From a phage: 64,000 nt of DNA. Under the pieces are notes generated by a model, which searched no databases, was not told the DNA's origin, and saw only the letters and a program-made list of their open reading frames with translations. The stretch is from assembly GCA_012813795.1 (NCBI GenBank), contig GCA_012813795.1_4087.1; one strand, given 5' to 3'. Positions 9,986 to 16,864 of the stretch are shown one piece after another (within the stretch, counting starts at the first letter, position 1; each line of letters starts with the position of its first letter). A program made the translations under genes and the position numbers.

Positions 9986-10013
9986 TAAAATAAAAGCCCC
10001 CAACATTGGAGGC
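9986..10013 (-). terminator. rho-independent terminator upstream of the polymerase gene
   Basis: GCCTCC-aatgtt-GGGGGC hairpin then TTTTATTTT on the minus strand. Confidence 0.55.
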
Positions 10014-10042
10014 TCATAAATTTTTAAAGTGTTCAGTACTGA

Positions 10043-10345
10043 TTAATAATCATCAGCTTGTGGTAGATTATTAGTTACGCTTAGGATAGTTTCGATGTTG
10101 TCTAGTTTGTTTTGCTTATCAAAGTAATCACCTTTGTAAATGCGTTGTGCAGCTTGTTTGATATCGGATGCATCAATACCTAGCTCATCAGAAAGAGAGT
10201 TGATGAAATCAGTATAGGAAGCTTTGGTATCATCAATAAAGGTTAGCTGTACCACTGCATTGTTTAGACCATCACTTAGACGTTTACGTTGTTCGTCGTT
10301 TAGGTCACGAATTTCTACTTTTGCTTCTTTTTTAGACTTAGCCAT
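10043..10345 (-). CDS. hypothetical protein
   Basis: ATG at 10345 with GGAGAT RBS; followed by a terminator. Confidence 0.5.
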   Translation of the reverse strand: MAKSKKEAKVEIRDLNDEQRKRLSDGLNNAVVQLTFIDDTKASYTDFINSLSDELGIDASDIKQAAQRIYKGDYFDKQNKLDNIETILSVTNNLPQADDY

Positions 10346-10444
10346 TGTTTTATCTCCATGTGTTAATGAAAAAAATAGACACTCCACAATGTTCCTCGTG
10401 GAATGTCTCTATTATATCAGTACTTCTCAATGTGTCCCAAATTT

Positions 10445-10900
10445 TTAAAGAAGGTTTAAAACTTCTTTAAGATCAGCGATTAGCTTCTCGTACTCAGCAG
10501 CTTCTTCAGTACTCAACATATCGAATTCTTTCTTCATGTCCAGTACTTTTTTGCGTTCACTCAAAAGATTGAATACTTGTTGTGCAGATAGTTGGCGTGG
10601 TGGTCTTTCGGAGAAAGTGCCGTTAACTTCGTTGTAAATTTTACCAACTAGTTCAGATTTATCCCCTGTATATTCAATTTCATATACACTATCATCTAAT
10701 GGACAGAGCATAGTAACATCATACGATGCACTAGTTACCATACCATTTTTATCTACTGTTATTTTTAATGTATCTTCTGAAAATAATTTATGTGAATCAT
10801 ACCAATCCATTCCACACTCAGAAATATAATATGCAATATTCATTCCTTTCAATTCAGGTTCATTACCTTCATATTTTTTAAAGTTTTTTAAAGTTATCAT
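10445..10900 (-). CDS. putative tail fiber assembly protein / chaperone
   Basis: about 150-aa ORF immediately downstream of a tail fiber gene; by position only. Confidence 0.35.
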   Translation of the reverse strand: MITLKNFKKYEGNEPELKGMNIAYYISECGMDWYDSHKLFSEDTLKITVDKNGMVTSASYDVTMLCPLDDSVYEIEYTGDKSELVGKIYNEVNGTFSERPPRQLSAQQVFNLLSERKKVLDMKKEFDMLSTEEAAEYEKLIADLKEVLNLL

Positions 10901-10903
10901 ATA

Positions 10904-12514
10904 TCACCCATCAATAGTTTTCCATGAACCATTAACTAAAATTTGCAAATATTTATAGTATACACCACCAATGTTATCAGCAGAGTTTTTACCAACATCC
11001 TGCACAATTATACCACTAAGCATTGCACCAGATGGACAGATGAAAGTCCAAGATATTTCGTTGTGGCCTGGATTAAATAATTTTTGCTCAATATAGCGGG
11101 CATCTTGTACTGAACCGGTAGTGATTGTTACATTACCATTACCATCTGCCCATGCACCATTAACTGTTCTCACGATAGGTTTACCACCAACAGATGCGGA
11201 ATTGGCATTAACTGTTAATGAACCTGGAATATACAAAGAACCACCACTGTTAACTGTTACAGCACCACCACCAGCACGAAGTCTTAGTTCATTACCTTGG
11301 AAGTATACTGCGGCACGTTCACCACCACTAGCGTTCTGGAAGAATAAGTACAAATCACCACCACCACGAATACCAGCACGGTTAGCAATGTATAATTCAC
11401 CAGACATTGTATCACCAGTTTTACGAACAAAACGATCATTTGCAGTATTTTCGCTCATCGCAACTGATGGTTCGGAAATGTTATACAAAATTGCAGTGTT
11501 AAAGTGTGGTACGTCAATACCTGTTACTGTATGGTTATGGGTAATTGTACGTGCGTTCGCATCATCATAAATTGGTTGTGAAGTTGATAATGCAGTTGCT
11601 GCATTGTTACCATCTACACTAAATTCCATACGGGCATTCTTATCACCAAAGATTGCTGGACCACGATAGCCTCTACCATCATTCCATGCTCTACCACTAA
11701 TGAAAACAGCATCATCTGCATCACTACCGTTAGTACCTAGCATTTTACCAGTTCCATGAATATGGTCTGGAATAGTGAAAGTACTCGGTGTTAATGAACC
11801 ACCACCTGCAATAATTGCGTCAGTTTTGGTTATACCACTAGTGGTGATACTTCTTAAATATCCATCACGGTTCAAGTTTGGTACTTGTTTGGTTATTGTA
11901 CCATTAGCACCTTGCCACTGCCACCACATACCATCAGCAAAACACCAACCATCGGATGTTTTCCACGGTTTAGCTTGGGAGCCGTCACGACCACTCTGTC
12001 CACCAGTACTACCCGACATTTGTTCACGTATACTAGCAACGGTTTGTCCAGATGTCAAGCTATAATGCATAATACATCCAGGTTTAGCACTCGTGTACAA
12101 ACCATTAGCACCTTGAATTGATGAAGGTGTTGGGAATATAATATTCAATGTAGTTCCGCTAATAGAAGCAGTTGGAATTGATGACATTGAATAGGTTACT
12201 CTATCAACCTTAGTTCCAAGTATAGAATTGATATCCTGAATCTGTTGTTCAATTGGTGCAACTACATCGGCAGCACTTAACATTTCAATCCAGTTAGTAC
12301 CATCATGATACTTCAAAGTAAGAGTGTTTTTGTCAAATACTATCGCCCCTGCTTCACCAACAGGTAAATCCTGAACAGGTAGTATTACCGATGAAGAATT
12401 CATTCTAATTGGTCGAGGATTAGTTGGTGTACCACCTAGTACTATTAGATTCAATGAACCATTTTCCGCAGTACTGGTTACAGTATTCTGTGGATGATTA
12501 AAACTTATGCTCAT
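10904..12514 (-). CDS. tail fiber protein (gp12/gp37-like distal region with HxH motifs)
   Basis: Gly/Ser/Thr/Asn-rich; IPDHIHGTG and THNHTV motifs as in T-even fiber tips. Confidence 0.7.
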   Translation of the reverse strand: MSISFNHPQNTVTSTAENGSLNLIVLGGTPTNPRPIRMNSSSVILPVQDLPVGEAGAIVFDKNTLTLKYHDGTNWIEMLSAADVVAPIEQQIQDINSILGTKVDRVTYSMSSIPTASISGTTLNIIFPTPSSIQGANGLYTSAKPGCIMHYSLTSGQTVASIREQMSGSTGGQSGRDGSQAKPWKTSDGWCFADGMWWQWQGANGTITKQVPNLNRDGYLRSITTSGITKTDAIIAGGGSLTPSTFTIPDHIHGTGKMLGTNGSDADDAVFISGRAWNDGRGYRGPAIFGDKNARMEFSVDGNNAATALSTSQPIYDDANARTITHNHTVTGIDVPHFNTAILYNISEPSVAMSENTANDRFVRKTGDTMSGELYIANRAGIRGGGDLYLFFQNASGGERAAVYFQGNELRLRAGGGAVTVNSGGSLYIPGSLTVNANSASVGGKPIVRTVNGAWADGNGNVTITTGSVQDARYIEQKLFNPGHNEISWTFICPSGAMLSGIIVQDVGKNSADNIGGVYYKYLQILVNGSWKTIDG

Positions 12515-12554
12515 GTAAAAATCCTTTTTTGTTTAATATATATCATATTTATAT

Positions 12555-12863
12555 CTATAGTAAATCATTTTCCATATCATCCAATACGGAATCAATAATA
12601 TTTGCAGCTAACTTTTTAGGCATCTTGAACCATTCAGAGTTAGGTTGCCTTGTTGCATTCATTTGCTTTAATCTCTTATGCACTTCCTTTTCTGCTGTTC
12701 GTGCATCGTCAAACATAACCTGATGGTATACCTCAAAATCCCTGAATGGTGAAGCAGTCTGGTAAACACCTAAACGCTCTTTCATCTCTGATTTTGTAGT
12801 GAAGCCTATCTTTACATATTCAGGCCATGCACTATTAGTGATTACATAACATATTTGTGACAT
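12555..12863 (-). CDS. T5orf172 (MUG113)-like domain protein
   Basis: CYVITN...YVKIGFT...EWF pattern typical of the GIY-YIG-related T5orf172 domain. Confidence 0.6.
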   Translation of the reverse strand: MSQICYVITNSAWPEYVKIGFTTKSEMKERLGVYQTASPFRDFEVYHQVMFDDARTAEKEVHKRLKQMNATRQPNSEWFKMPKKLAANIIDSVLDDMENDLL

Positions 12864-12893
12864 AGATATCTCCTAGTATGGAGATATTTATTA

Positions 12894-13244
12894 TTAACTA
12901 ATTCTGAAGTTTACACCCGCATCTATCAGGCGTTGAAATGGATTTTGAGGATCAAACTCGGATGGGGTTTTAGGAGTGTTCAGTACTGGAGCATCAGCAT
13001 GTAACTTCGACATGCGTTCTTTGTATTTGTCAATATATTCTTCATACAACATGTCTTCTGAATCAGTACTCAATATATCTTCTATAAAATGATCAGTACT
13101 GTAATCCAGACGATCATCATTGTAATACAACGTCTCCGTAGCCTCATCATAACCCACCAACGTTCCATAAGGAACATTGATCTCAATTTTTGAGTACTGA
13201 CTCTTTAAGTACTCTTCTTTTTTAAAAATGTATACAGTTAACAT
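12894..13244 (-). CDS. hypothetical protein
   Basis: ORF within the endonuclease-like island. Confidence 0.4.
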   Translation of the reverse strand: MLTVYIFKKEEYLKSQYSKIEINVPYGTLVGYDEATETLYYNDDRLDYSTDHFIEDILSTDSEDMLYEEYIDKYKERMSKLHADAPVLNTPKTPSEFDPQNPFQRLIDAGVNFRIS

Positions 13245-13268
13245 AGTGAAAGCTTCCCTGCTTAGTGT

Positions 13269-14381
13269 TTATTCAAATGTATTTACAATCTCCAGTACTG
13301 TTTCAAGATACTTAGCATCAAAAGTTTCTGTGAATCCTGATGGCAACTCTTCAGTACTTACTACACCACTATCAATGTATTGTTTCAAAAACTTTTCCAG
13401 TACTAATGGTTTATGTCCATCTTCAAAGTAACGTTCTACCAGTACAGTGTGTTTAAAATCAGAATGACGACTTTGCTCATTTACACGGCGTTTCATATCG
13501 CCAGTGATTCCATACTTGTACACTGTCTTATCTTTATTAGTTAGTTTTTGAACATAGAAATATCCAGGTTTTGATGGCTGATATCCGTATTCACCACAAC
13601 CAGGACATCCCCTACCAGCAATGTGGGATTTTGGTGACTGTTGAAATATGCCATGTGTAGGACACGTTATTTTTACTGGAACAATACTACTTTCATACTC
13701 TACCGTACTGTAATCATACTTGTGACCATGAACTAGTTTTGCTTCAGAAATAAATTGTTCTGTTGTTCTTCCACCTTTACCAGAACATACACCACAACCT
13801 GATTTACCAAGTATCAATGTTTTTGGATCAACTTCCCAATCATGTTTCCCTTCATTACAATGTACTGTTACTTTAGTTGCTCTGTTAACATACTTTGTTT
13901 TTGAGAAACTAAGTTTATCACCATAGTTACGTTTGACAATTTTTATAAATTCGTCATTTGTATGCACAGTATTAATATTACAAACGTTACACCCAGCACC
14001 AGTTAATAACTTGTTCGGTGTTATGTCAAAATACCCACCATGTTCAGTACAGAATATTGAAACTTTAGTTTTTGCATTTACATAATTCAATTTATCAAAT
14101 TTAAATTTGTCAGCACCAAATTTTTTTTCAACTTTAGAAATGAAATCATCATTGTTTGAACGCTGTGACATGTTACTGTAACAATTTGAACATGTACATG
14201 AAATATGACGAATCGCTGATTTTGTATTTTCAATACCACATTTATTACATTTTAATGTAGTTTTACTTGATTTAAAAATCATTGAATCAAAATCAAACTC
14301 ACCATACATTCCGTATTTTTTAATCATATTTTCTTTAAAGTTTTTAATTAACATTTTATTCATCTCGGTGATTGTCTTCAA
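13269..14381 (-). CDS. homing-endonuclease-like protein: four tandem zinc-ribbon modules plus a C-terminal GIY-YIG/T5orf172-like domain
   Basis: repeats ...CxxHGxF...LxGxGCxxC x4; C-terminal GYFYV...YKYGIT...R..E. Confidence 0.6.
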   Translation of the reverse strand: MKTITEMNKMLIKNFKENMIKKYGMYGEFDFDSMIFKSSKTTLKCNKCGIENTKSAIRHISCTCSNCYSNMSQRSNNDDFISKVEKKFGADKFKFDKLNYVNAKTKVSIFCTEHGGYFDITPNKLLTGAGCNVCNINTVHTNDEFIKIVKRNYGDKLSFSKTKYVNRATKVTVHCNEGKHDWEVDPKTLILGKSGCGVCSGKGGRTTEQFISEAKLVHGHKYDYSTVEYESSIVPVKITCPTHGIFQQSPKSHIAGRGCPGCGEYGYQPSKPGYFYVQKLTNKDKTVYKYGITGDMKRRVNEQSRHSDFKHTVLVERYFEDGHKPLVLEKFLKQYIDSGVVSTEELPSGFTETFDAKYLETVLEIVNTFE

Positions 14382-14420
14382 TGTGATAATTATATATAAT
14401 TAAATTTACCATGTCAAGCT

Positions 14421-14454
14421 TTTTTGTAAAAGAAAAGGGACTCCGAAGAGTCCC
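14421..14454 (-). terminator. terminator after the major capsid gene (UUCG tetraloop)
   Basis: GGGACTC-ttcg-GAGTCCC on the minus strand followed by TTTTCTTTT. Confidence 0.7.
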
Positions 14455-14477
14455 TAGTATATTTAAATTCTTTGTTA

Positions 14478-15653
14478 TTACATGAAAGTAACGTTTTTGA
14501 TAGCGATTTTGCTGTAGTAGTCAGCAGCATTACCCAAACTTGAAGTTGAGTCAGTGAGTTGCACGTAGCCATAGCGTGTTAAAAATGTCGTGACCAATTC
14601 TCCAGTGTTAGGGTCCATTACAGTACCAGAAGCCATTAGTGGGATGTATGGGCAATAGAATACACCAGCATCAGTTTCTGCATTACCTTTATAACCAATT
14701 AGAATATCTTCTACATCTGAGGCGTAAGTATCGACAAATATACGCATGGTGCTGTTTAGAGTACCAACGAATTTAACGTTAGTTGGTGCTTCAAAAGTAC
14801 CTTCAGTAGTACGTGCAAAGCTGGAAGTAGTTGCAGACTGTAGAATGGTTAGAGCAGTTGGGGAAACAACAGCCCAGTTCGCAGCACCACGTTTGGTACG
14901 ACGAGCAACTTCGTTCGCTTGACGGTTGATTAGGGTAGCTAGAGCAGCGTGCTCATCACCTACGAAGGTTGCAACGCCAGTAACTTTAGATTGGTCATAA
15001 GTTACAGCAGCAGCACCAGGTAGTGCACGTAGACGGCTTAGTAGCTCTTGGTCGATTTCAACGGTAACTTCTTGAGCGATAGCAGCCATTAGTTCAGCTT
15101 CAACGTCGATACCATGTTGAGATTGTGCATCTTGTGCAGATTCAACAGTCCAACGTGCAGATAGACGACGAGATTTCGCTTCAACAGTTTCACGTAGGAT
15201 ACGGATGTTAACGCGACGACCCATAGTACCTTCTAGTTGGCTAGTAGGAGCAGCTTGTGGGTTACTGTTGTCAGAGTTTAGCTCACCAGTGTAAGATTTA
15301 GCAATCTTGAATGGAGATAGCATTTCTTCGCCAGCTACAACACCTGGTGCGTTGTCAGCGTATTGAACACGTAGAGTGTGGATTTGACCAACTGGGCCAG
15401 TCATTGGTTGAACACCGATGATTTCGTTAGCGATAACGGTTGGCATTACACGACGCATAATTGGTAGAATCACTTTGTTTAGAGTAGCGATGTTACCAGC
15501 AGAAGTTGCACCAGAGGTTGCAGATTCTTGTAGCATAACTTTGCGATGGTTATCAAGTACGGTTTCCATTACAGATTTACGAGTACCTTGAAGACCTTCA
15601 ACTAGTTTCTCTTTAACTGCTACCCATTTGGATTCATTTAGTAGTTGTGACAT
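14478..15653 (-). CDS. 23: major capsid protein (T4 gp23-like)
   Basis: IGVQPM, VEAKSRRL, GYKGNAETDAGVFYCPY align to T4 gp23; strong CTA/CGT/GGT bias. Confidence 0.9.
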   Translation of the reverse strand: MSQLLNESKWVAVKEKLVEGLQGTRKSVMETVLDNHRKVMLQESATSGATSAGNIATLNKVILPIMRRVMPTVIANEIIGVQPMTGPVGQIHTLRVQYADNAPGVVAGEEMLSPFKIAKSYTGELNSDNSNPQAAPTSQLEGTMGRRVNIRILRETVEAKSRRLSARWTVESAQDAQSQHGIDVEAELMAAIAQEVTVEIDQELLSRLRALPGAAAVTYDQSKVTGVATFVGDEHAALATLINRQANEVARRTKRGAANWAVVSPTALTILQSATTSSFARTTEGTFEAPTNVKFVGTLNSTMRIFVDTYASDVEDILIGYKGNAETDAGVFYCPYIPLMASGTVMDPNTGELVTTFLTRYGYVQLTDSTSSLGNAADYYSKIAIKNVTFM

Positions 15654-15682
15654 TATATTATCTCCTTAAAGATGTTATATTC

Positions 15683-15718
15683 GTTTTTCAGTATGTTATT
15701 ATTTATGGTACTGAAAAA
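15683..15718 (-). promoter_or_regulatory. late-promoter-like CATAAATAAT plus flanking inverted repeat upstream of the capsid gene
   Basis: minus strand TTTTTTCAGTACCATAAATAATAACATACTGAAAAA; about 45 nt before the ATG. Confidence 0.4.
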
Positions 15719-15745
15719 ATTGATTATTAAAATGCTTTAAAATGT

Positions 15746-16864
15746 TTATTTTTTATTGATACCAGAAAGAACGTCGAGTTCTTTTAGGAATGCCATATCG
15801 TCAGCGGTCATTTCTTCGCTTTCAACAATAGCCTGACGGTTGCCAGTGATTACTTTACCTTCTGCTAGGGTTGTTTTCTTCGCTGAAGGTTGAACTGCTT
15901 GACGAGTGGTAGCAGATTCATTTACTTTAGTACCGTTAAGTACAGACTTATGGTACTTGCTGAAATCTTCTTTAAGCTTTTCTGTTGGAGAAGCAGCTAG
16001 AAGGGATTCCATAATTTGTTTTTGTTGACTAGTCAAAGGCTTAACCAATTCAGACATAATCGCATTGCGTGCCTGTGTATCTTCCATGATACGTAGTTTT
16101 GATTGAACTTCTTTAACTGCGTTAACAGATTCATTTAGTTCTTGTTTAACTTGAGCAATCTCATCTTCTTTAGATTTGATTGATTCAGTCAAAGAACGAA
16201 GTAGTGAATTCTCATTAAATTGTTTGGTATTAAATTCTTGAGCAAATGCTTCAAAGATTTTACGACCGAACATATTTTGTTTAGCTTCAGCAAGATCTTG
16301 TTTCAAAGCGTAAAGATTTTTCTGAGTGGTTTCTGCAATATATTTAGCAGCACTTTCAGAGGTACGTTTGATAAAGTTATTACGTGCTTCTGCAATTTGA
16401 CGAGAACCTTCAGCAAGTAGTTTTACACGAGCTTCTACTAGTTGACGTTTTTCGCTGTGGAATTCTTTTAGTTCTTCAGCTAGGATACCGTTAGAGAAAT
16501 TAACGAATTTACCGAGGCTTTCTTGAACTAGTTTACGTTCGTTACGCATTTGTTTAACTTCTTCAGCTAGTACTGAATTAGCGAATTCAGAGAAGTTACC
16601 AAGAGTTTTACGGAGGGTAACGCGGTCTTCAACGAGACGTTTTTTCTCGTCATATACTGCACCCATTTCTTCAGCGATAACTTGAGTAACCATAGTGTTA
16701 AGACCTTCTGTTAGTTCAGCTAGGTCTTGTTTATAACGGCCTTTCATTTCTTCACGCATTTCAGCGGCTAGTGTGTTCTTTTCTTCATTCCATGCTTCCT
16801 GAATTAGCTGTTTTGCTTCATCAGAAAGAGATGATTCTTTTAGAAGCTTTTCTAATTTAGACAT
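15746..16864 (-). CDS. 22: prohead core scaffold protein (gp22-like)
   Basis: charged coiled-coil-like protein between protease and capsid genes; TATAAATA upstream. Confidence 0.65.
   Translation of the reverse strand: MSKLEKLLKESSLSDEAKQLIQEAWNEEKNTLAAEMREEMKGRYKQDLAELTEGLNTMVTQVIAEEMGAVYDEKKRLVEDRVTLRKTLGNFSEFANSVLAEEVKQMRNERKLVQESLGKFVNFSNGILAEELKEFHSEKRQLVEARVKLLAEGSRQIAEARNNFIKRTSESAAKYIAETTQKNLYALKQDLAEAKQNMFGRKIFEAFAQEFNTKQFNENSLLRSLTESIKSKEDEIAQVKQELNESVNAVKEVQSKLRIMEDTQARNAIMSELVKPLTSQQKQIMESLLAASPTEKLKEDFSKYHKSVLNGTKVNESATTRQAVQPSAKKTTLAEGKVITGNRQAIVESEEMTADDMAFLKELDVLSGINKK

Follow-up and report, generated by a model that had tools for sequence, protein, structure and literature searches.

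The gene p370, which lies between the major capsid gene and the tail-fibre gene in a stretch of phage DNA of 64,000 nucleotides (the window; contig GCA_012813795.1_4087.1 of GenBank assembly GCA_012813795.1), is probably an active or recently active free-standing homing endonuclease gene (HEG) of the T5orf172 class. Its product combines a zinc array with a predicted GIY-YIG fold, and the gene lies in an intergenic region beside an essential gene, under a promoter of its own. When relatives were compared, p370 was found to be present, absent or replaced between flanks that were otherwise ~100% identical. An earlier note, made from the letters of the window alone, had read p370 as a homing-endonuclease-like gene of this free-standing kind and had proposed a presence/absence comparison of the island; the reading of p370 was borne out. 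The same note placed p370 and its two neighbours, p102 and p116, in one island, and on this point the comparison led elsewhere: only p370, among the three genes, behaves as a mobile element. The features that carry this reading are as follows:

13269..14381, minus strand: p370, putative free-standing T5orf172-type homing endonuclease gene (phrog_681 'endonuclease', expectation value (E) 8e-80)
13245..14426, minus strand: putative mobile cassette, comprising the promoter, the open reading frame (ORF) and the spacer to the p116 start (alignment against PBECO4 and fEgEco12)
14389..14417, minus strand: cassette promoter, TTGACA-17 nt-TATAAT (12/12 match to the sigma-70 consensus)
14436..14455, minus strand: intrinsic terminator of the major capsid gene, AGGGACTCTTCGGAGTCCCT and then a T-run (scan)
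14478-15653: major capsid gene, gp23-type (Pfam Gp23, E 5e-90)
14523..14597, minus strand: silent-site hot spot near the capsid stop, covering codons ~351-375 at the gene's 3' end (comparison with phage A4)

The capsid terminator bounds the insertion slot upstream, and the cassette (~1.18 kb) lies between this terminator and the p116 ribosome-binding site. In the alignment, the terminator (8-bp stem, TTCG loop, T-run) was unchanged in occupied and empty relatives. The cassette promoter was the sole perfect sigma-70 match in the window (0.17 expected by chance); it was found in the cassettes of phages A4, 121Q and Ec-M-J and was lacking at empty sites, where a spacer of ~35-45 nt stood in the place of the cassette from the capsid terminator to the p116 start. 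Aligned against these empty sites, the inserted segment had precise boundaries. In Turkey5 (L004:5896-6009) and Munch (L005:5887-6001), a TATAAT was preceded, at a distance of 17 nt, by a -35-like TTGACG that falls within the capsid terminator (loop and descending stem); in these two phages, terminator and cassette promoter therefore overlap.

The content of the slot varied among relatives. It was empty in PBECO4, fEgEco12, SD-6_S16 and Serratia phage BF, and contained the ~1.18 kb promoter and ORF in the window, A4, 121Q and Ec-M-J. Munch and G17 carried three-module versions of p370 (304-308 amino acids), and RaK2 carried a relative of 408 amino acids directly 3' of its capsid gene. The Turkey5 slot held a CapR/DUF723/T5orf172 protein of 406 amino acids, 38% identical to p370 and above the Pfam cut-offs (CapR 42 bits, DUF723 35 bits), and JNE01 and SHEFM2K held a T5orf172 protein of 332 amino acids, ~28% identical to p370, which exceeded the T5orf172/MUG113 cut-off at 26 bits. 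In ph0011 (L013:1301-2899) and UE-S1 (L015:1755-3413), the slot was filled by a DUF7487 protein of 532-552 amino acids with a weak match to MTES_1575, a restriction-endonuclease-like family; this occupant is unrelated to T5orf172, and a separate nuclease family therefore uses the same insertion site. The slot of GAP32 (GAP32_251, L017:4317-4550) contained an ORF of 77 amino acids with 37% identity to p370 residues 318-369 (E 2e-12), which covers the second half of the nuclease domain and is the remnant of a decayed T5orf172 endonuclease gene. Besides the empty and remnant states, the occupants across relatives comprise four or more genes that are unrelated or only distantly related.

The decayed GAP32 remnant in the same slot and the existence of shorter three-module variants could also fit a p370 that is itself spent, i.e. 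intact-looking, fixed in its lineage, left without susceptible targets and drifting to decay, and such stages are predicted by the homing-element life cycle. We consider this quite improbable for the window copy, since its ORF is full length and has kept every conserved ligand and catalytic-type residue, and since its promoter is a perfect consensus. In addition, potential targets, namely relatives with an empty slot, circulate alongside it in E. coli and Salmonella, and the recent zinc-array exchange described below argues for ongoing activity.

GIY-YIG enzymes of phage T4 spread via double-strand-break repair, with co-conversion of the flanks, and the host allele carries protective polymorphisms. 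In the near-isogenic pairs of the present set, differences were essentially confined to the cassette and to flanks of 0-600 bp. 121Q and PBECO4 differed in the cassette and in a tract on either side of it (~600 bp towards p116/p102, ~250 bp towards the capsid gene), and Ec-M-J differed from fEgEco12 by the cassette and a tract of 80-97% identity located 40-280 nt upstream of the capsid stop. In the comparison of SHEFM2K with PBECO4 the insertion was clean, with no flanking tract, and between JNE01 and Turkey5 one endonuclease gene had been cleanly replaced by another. G17 and 121Q shared the backbone, the nuclease domain and the third zinc module, and differed in the first modules and at the capsid 3' end. 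Over the span from polymerase to protease gene, the window and A4 shared 99-100% identity outside three regions: the fibre tip and its chaperone, the p370 array and promoter (13599-14427, 56-74% identity) and a patch of the capsid gene (14523-14597). At the level of sequence comparison, the flanking tracts (~250-600 bp) of the 121Q/PBECO4, Ec-M-J/fEgEco12, G17/121Q and window/A4 pairs would fit co-conversion; SHEFM2K/PBECO4 has no such tract.

Lying 45-120 nt before the stop codon of the capsid gene, the patch contained 33 differences from A4 in 75 nt and zero amino-acid changes, while the rest of the locus around it was 97-100% identical to A4. The differences included complete switches between Ser-codon families (TCN to AGY). 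Across 11 Asteriusviruses, capsid codons 351-375 carried 0.75 silent differences per codon, with no replacements, against a gene mean of 0.19, and none of 5000 permutations reached this peak. Within the patch, A4, 121Q and Ec-M-J, which have a common endonuclease allele, grouped at 92-99% identity, whereas the capsid backbones grouped differently (outside the patch, the 121Q capsid gene was 98% identical to that of PBECO4). It is thus the endonuclease allele, and not the capsid backbone, that the patch haplotype tracks, albeit imperfectly. Region 14523-14597 is a candidate for the cleavage or immunity region of the endonuclease and for its co-conversion tract; that it is the target or immunity region we put at slightly short of an even chance. 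A second and weaker silent peak was seen at ~14694-14783 (capsid codons ~291-320; ~0.4 differences per codon against the mean of 0.19), and slight amino-acid variation occurred inside it, at codon 314.

The p370 gene of the window had its own history of exchange. Compared with the window copy, the p370 of Logan contig L020 was 97-100% identical in the zinc array and only 77-93% identical in the nuclease domain, and A4 displayed the reverse pattern. These opposite patterns show the window p370 to be a recombinant joined at the array/nuclease boundary: its zinc array comes from one lineage and is joined to an A4-like nuclease domain from another, with the junction near 13584-13599.

Within the p370 protein, two parts were delimited, as follows:

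13584..14360, minus strand: zinc array, four tandem modules of ~65 residues (ligand positions and repeat alignment)
13272..13583, minus strand: C-terminal nuclease domain, residues 267-370, predicted GIY-YIG fold, T5orf172/MUG113-like

The start of the protein is likely to be the ATG at 14354, giving 361 amino acids, because the transcript predicted from the cassette promoter would begin at the listed TTG start (14381) and because a 96%-identical homologue (P0001) has 361 amino acids; residue numbers below follow the listed start. The N-terminal 266 residues consisted of four mutually alignable units (repeat alignment), namely residues 8-72 (C4 type) and residues 73-138, 139-204 and 205-266 (C-H-C-C type). 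The ligands followed the pattern CxxC...CxCxxC in module 1 and C-x2-4-H...CxxC in modules 2-4, and the ligand sets were C45/C48...C62-C64/C67, C111/H114...C131/C134, C175/H180...C196/C199 and C240/H243...C259/C262, so that paired Cys/His ligands were ~20-26 residues apart in every module. Conservation was assessed in a set of 39 close and distant homologues, in which the cysteines of modules 1-3 were invariant, and the invariant positions included C111, C131, C134, C175, C196, C199, C240, C259 and C262. The array was modelled with a predicted local distance difference test (pLDDT) score of 84.8. Among the 39 homologues, zinc-module families of Pfam were matched (E <= 0.001) by 28 (DUF4379), 10 (DUF723) and three (CapR), and nuclease families by eight (MUG113) and two (T5orf172).

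The full-length model of p370 had a beads-on-a-string shape with a predicted template modelling (pTM) score of 0.36, and the C-terminal domain was for this reason modelled on its own. It is predicted to adopt a GIY-YIG fold (three-stranded sheet with flanking helices). In the 39 homologues, Y276, Y288, R299 and E352 were invariant, as were K289, G291, E329 and K333; from their spacing, the first four would be the GIY-YIG catalytic-type positions, namely the Tyr of strand 1, the Tyr of strand 2, the Arg of helix 1 and the distal Glu. R299 and E352 are 53 residues apart, and the Arg-to-Glu spacing in I-TevI is 48 residues. Additional support for the domain was given by the ICP1 gene 'tcgB putative homing endonuclease', which matched p370 residues 213-369 at 33% identity (tblastn). 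A sequence search of p370 against the PDB returned nothing meaningful (best E 0.59), a Foldseek search of the full-length model against the PDB returned no significant or sensible match, and NCBIfam had no match for p102, p116 or p370. The four tandem zinc modules followed by a C-terminal GIY-YIG/T5orf172-like domain, as the earlier note had described them, are thus upheld by the ligand sets, the repeat alignment and the predicted fold.

The same modules allow p370 to be read as a domesticated CapR-like regulator of the capsid or fibre transcription unit, with an inactive nuclease domain. CapR-type zinc modules can repress a capsid operon by promoter binding (PMC8096241), I-TevI is reported to double as a repressor (discussed in PMC10448857), and p370 sits at the capsid/fibre junction with no terminator between it and p116, p102 and the fibre gene. 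Invariance of the Tyr, Tyr, Arg and Glu residues in 39/39 homologues is however unexpected for a dead domain, and the viable relatives with an empty slot or an unrelated nuclease indicate that the locus has no essential regulatory role. We therefore hold the regulator reading to be very improbable.

For p370 as a homing endonuclease gene, we propose the following course. The gene would probably be transcribed early in infection by the host RNA polymerase, from its own promoter. When two phages infect one cell, the long asymmetric site bound by the zinc array would lie in the capsid 3' end or the intergenic region of the partner phage that is cassette-less or carries another allele, and the tethered GIY-YIG domain would cut near the array-bound site. 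Recombinational repair from cassette-bearing genomes would then copy in the cassette together with the adjacent silent polymorphisms, which would make the converted allele resistant. The diversity of slot occupants could result from repeated invasion, module shuffling, decay and loss. The zinc array and the silent patch change together in several near-isogenic pairs (window/A4, G17/121Q and Ec-M-J/fEgEco12). A more doubtful extension is that such pairs constitute natural matched array/target sets, which would require the patch to be where cleavage or immunity is determined.

Cutting of competing phages or satellites might instead be the main function of p370, which would then be an Odn-like weapon kept for its benefit to the phage. 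In ICP1, anti-satellite immunity is described as coming from a T5orf172 nuclease whose DNA-binding domain has been swapped (PMC8263062; PMC10448857), an early-type consensus promoter would suit an early-acting weapon, and T5orf172 domains occur in the candidate defence proteins PDC-S57 and PD-Lambda-1. Against this, turnover, decay and loss at a fixed slot beside an essential gene, together with allele-linked flanks, are the signature of a homing element, and the Pfam search found no RepA_N or satellite-derived domain in p370. We regard a main role as a weapon as unlikely; the two roles are not mutually exclusive, as cutting the capsid gene of a competitor is also marker exclusion.

Several observations weigh against the homing interpretation. 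Homing has not been experimentally verified for the putative HEGs of ICP1, which are the best-studied T5orf172 examples (PMC10448857), and the window p370 could be an intact copy that is no longer active. All its own Pfam matches fell under the curated cut-offs, both for the zinc modules (DUF723 20.2 bits against 20.9, DUF4379 20.4 against 24.5, CapR 18.6 against 24.2) and for the nuclease domain, which scored 15.8 bits against 20 and 17.6 against 22.3 with PF10544 (T5orf172) and PF13455 (MUG113), respectively. By hhalign, the p370 C-terminal family was linked only weakly to that of p102 (E 0.011, probability 4%), with the register as expected. With regard to the patch, the capsid genes of SHEFM2K and PBECO4 are identical despite the insertion, contig L020 has the zinc array of the window but only part of its patch, and the co-variation of patch and endonuclease could be produced by physical linkage alone. 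SHEFM2K and L020 thus speak against taking the patch haplotype to be strictly diagnostic of the endonuclease type, and this idea was rejected.

The ORF listing and the terminator scan confirmed another statement of the earlier note, that three genes lie between the fibre gene and the capsid terminator; there are exactly three, all on the minus strand. Apart from p370, the features on this side of the slot are as follows:

12894..13244, minus strand: p116, acidic conserved protein (phrog_15724, E 1.4e-52)
12555..12863, minus strand: p102, stand-alone T5orf172 (GIY-YIG superfamily) protein (Pfam 49 bits)
10904-12514: tail-fibre gene, beside p102 (ORF listing)

p102 was correctly recognised from the letters as a small T5orf172-domain protein: it matched Pfam T5orf172 (PF10544) at 49 bits, with a cut-off of 20, and MUG113 at 48.4 bits. 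Its family contained 32 homologue clusters, all of ~100 amino acids and several of them on contigs of ~350 kb, and residues Y6, K18, G20, R30, E58 and E77 were invariant in 21 members. The protein matched the N-terminal ~90 residues of the PADLOC PDC-S57 profiles (E 3.6e-16), and no DNA-binding module was found in its 102 residues. Non-synonymous differences (pN ~0.1) were far fewer than synonymous ones (pS ~0.8), and silent sites were saturated; the Munch counterpart was 80% identical in protein sequence. p116 (isoelectric point 4.45, no cysteine) matched a PHROG of unknown function, with a ratio of non-synonymous to synonymous substitution rates of 0.04-0.11. It evolves fast, being 30% identical to its Munch counterpart, compared with 80% for the adjacent p102 over an equal distance. 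Close kinship of the p370 nuclease domain to the p102 family was set aside, the hhalign result being too weak to serve as evidence, and a special silent divergence of p102/p116 relative to 121Q-type phages was dropped, as it equalled the non-structural background (polymerase, ~82-84% identity).

The synteny of the two genes was surveyed in the GenBank phage collection, since a scan of IMG/VR with p102 gave only five loci. p102 and p116 were at the same position in 63 of the 63 related phage records found, which span Asteriusvirus, Mimasvirus, Eneladusvirus and the Yersinia, Erwinia, Xanthomonas, Pectobacterium and Cronobacter jumbo phages; among these records, empty-slot phages included, no close relative without the pair was found. 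The proposal of a single mobile homing-endonuclease island made of p102, p116 and p370 drew on two of the three genes having GIY-YIG-superfamily domains and on the three being adjacent and co-oriented. It conflicts with the presence of p102/p116 in several genera, also where the p370 slot is empty, with the purifying selection indicated by the 80% identity of p102 to its Munch counterpart at saturated silent sites, and with the lack of a DNA-binding module in p102. We give the island next to no credence: p370 alone is variable, and p102 and p116 are syntenic core genes under purifying selection, outside the mobile cassette. p102 may be a domesticated stand-alone T5orf172 nuclease with a core function in all Rak2-like jumbo phages.

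The phage itself is a jumbo coliphage of the Asteriusvirus type; its gp23 capsid protein is T4-like, but the phage does not belong to the T4-like phages proper, whose endonuclease genes the earlier note had used for comparison. The closest relative was Escherichia phage A4 (ON286972), with 90% identity across a full 5.3 kb query around the locus, and ~70 Rak2-like jumbo phages matched this query in part. Elsewhere in the window, no paralogues of p102, p116 or p370 were detected (phmmer, E <= 1), and Rfam found no RNA families in 10000-16000. In 10400-11200, the C-terminal tip of the fibre and its assembly chaperone were only 63-87% identical to A4, where the surroundings were 99-100% identical, and near 10400-10445 A4 had 699 additional bases corresponding to a second 'tail fiber chaperone' gene. 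This divergence looks like a host-range module swap.

p370 is a further example of an already described gene type, at a locus that is ordinary but unusually clean. For genome annotation, the selfish cassette can be told apart from its two neighbours, which are core genes; one of them, p102, also shares the domain family. Current labels vary: most records name the p370 homologue 'hypothetical protein', vB_EcoM_CRJP21 has it as 'DNA polymerase II', and in the vB_Ec-M-J record the small core gene p102 is mislabelled 'homing endonuclease'. T5orf172 HEGs are abundant in phages and their homing is so far without demonstration, and this locus is a good system for a direct test. Among E. coli phages in culture with ~100% identity around the slot there are empty (PBECO4, fEgEco12) and occupied ones (121Q, Ec-M-J, G17, A4) as well as carriers of other alleles, and this near-isogenic set, with a narrow candidate target in the capsid gene, makes a homing test straightforward. 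Should cleavage or immunity indeed reside in the patch, the matched pairs could yield a recognition code for CapR/DUF723-type modules and permit a first experimental demonstration of T5orf172 homing, including retargeting by module swap at the array/nuclease junction. Recombination at this junction illustrates how such enzymes may be retargeted, which is relevant to the engineering of modular nucleases.

Among known systems, the enzymes I-TevI and SegA-G resemble p370 in having a catalytic domain of GIY-YIG fold tethered to a separate DNA-binding region and in being encoded by free-standing genes between conserved genes. By analogy, p370 would act like these enzymes, but it stands outside their family: its domain order is reversed, with the nuclease domain at the C-terminus (Pfam search and model), and it has no PF01541 or NUMOD match. 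This order is no oddity, contrary to the emphasis that the earlier note had put on it. N-terminal CapR/DUF723/DUF4379 repeats with a C-terminal T5orf172 domain are the standard layout of T5orf172 HEGs (Barth, Dunham & Seed 2023, PMC10448857), and the layout recurs in 226 structurally similar viral proteins of BFVD (e.g. 'CapR homology domain-containing', 'T5 Orf172 DNA-binding domain-containing') and in the p370 homologues, which number >1000 database proteins at E <= 1e-10.

CapR (Pfam PF21817), encoded by the PLE satellite of Vibrio cholerae, binds DNA via its cysteines (Netter et al. 2021, PMC8096241). It shares with p370 a cysteine-dependent zinc module and an association with a capsid locus. 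CapR however is a repressor with one module and no nuclease domain, whereas p370 keeps a nuclease domain and matches the CapR profile at only 18.6 bits. The zinc modules of p370 are predicted to bind DNA by analogy, sequence-specific binding being known for CapR itself only.

Odn of ICP1 has, like p370, a T5orf172 nuclease combined with an exchangeable DNA-binding domain. Its nuclease activity is reported to depend on a conserved glutamate (cited in PMC10448857), and Odn is thus a precedent for activity in this domain family. It is described as targeting a satellite replication origin via RepA_N (Barth et al. 2021, PMC8263062), a domain absent from p370. The candidate defence proteins PDC-S57 and PD-Lambda-1 have the T5orf172 domain in common with p102; unlike them, p102 has only 102 residues and no partner domain, and is a phage core gene beside the fibre gene.

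The closest parallels to p370 are the HEGs of ICP1 (gp165, gp174, 'tcgB'). Both are free-standing, with N-terminal zinc modules and a C-terminal T5orf172 domain, and both lie beside capsid or other essential genes, vary in presence, and show repeat or domain shuffling and recombination boundaries at the gene. These properties agree with a survey of 229 T5orf172 HEGs, 87% of which had CapR/DUF723/DUF4379 zinc fingers, often repeated, at the end opposite the nuclease; a capsid gene was within 31% of the HEG neighbourhoods, and recombination and shuffling inside the zinc repeats were documented (PMC10448857). p370 has 25-35% identity to the Vibrio phage genes and carries four modules, the first of C4 type. 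Its host lineage, the Asteriusvirus/Rak2-like jumbo coliphages, was not highlighted in that survey, and the Rak2-like phage papers in the literature searched mention HNH and LAGLIDADG elements and not the p370 slot. Unlike the ICP1 HEGs, the p370 locus offers several near-isogenic occupied/empty pairs together with a silent hot spot in the capsid gene.

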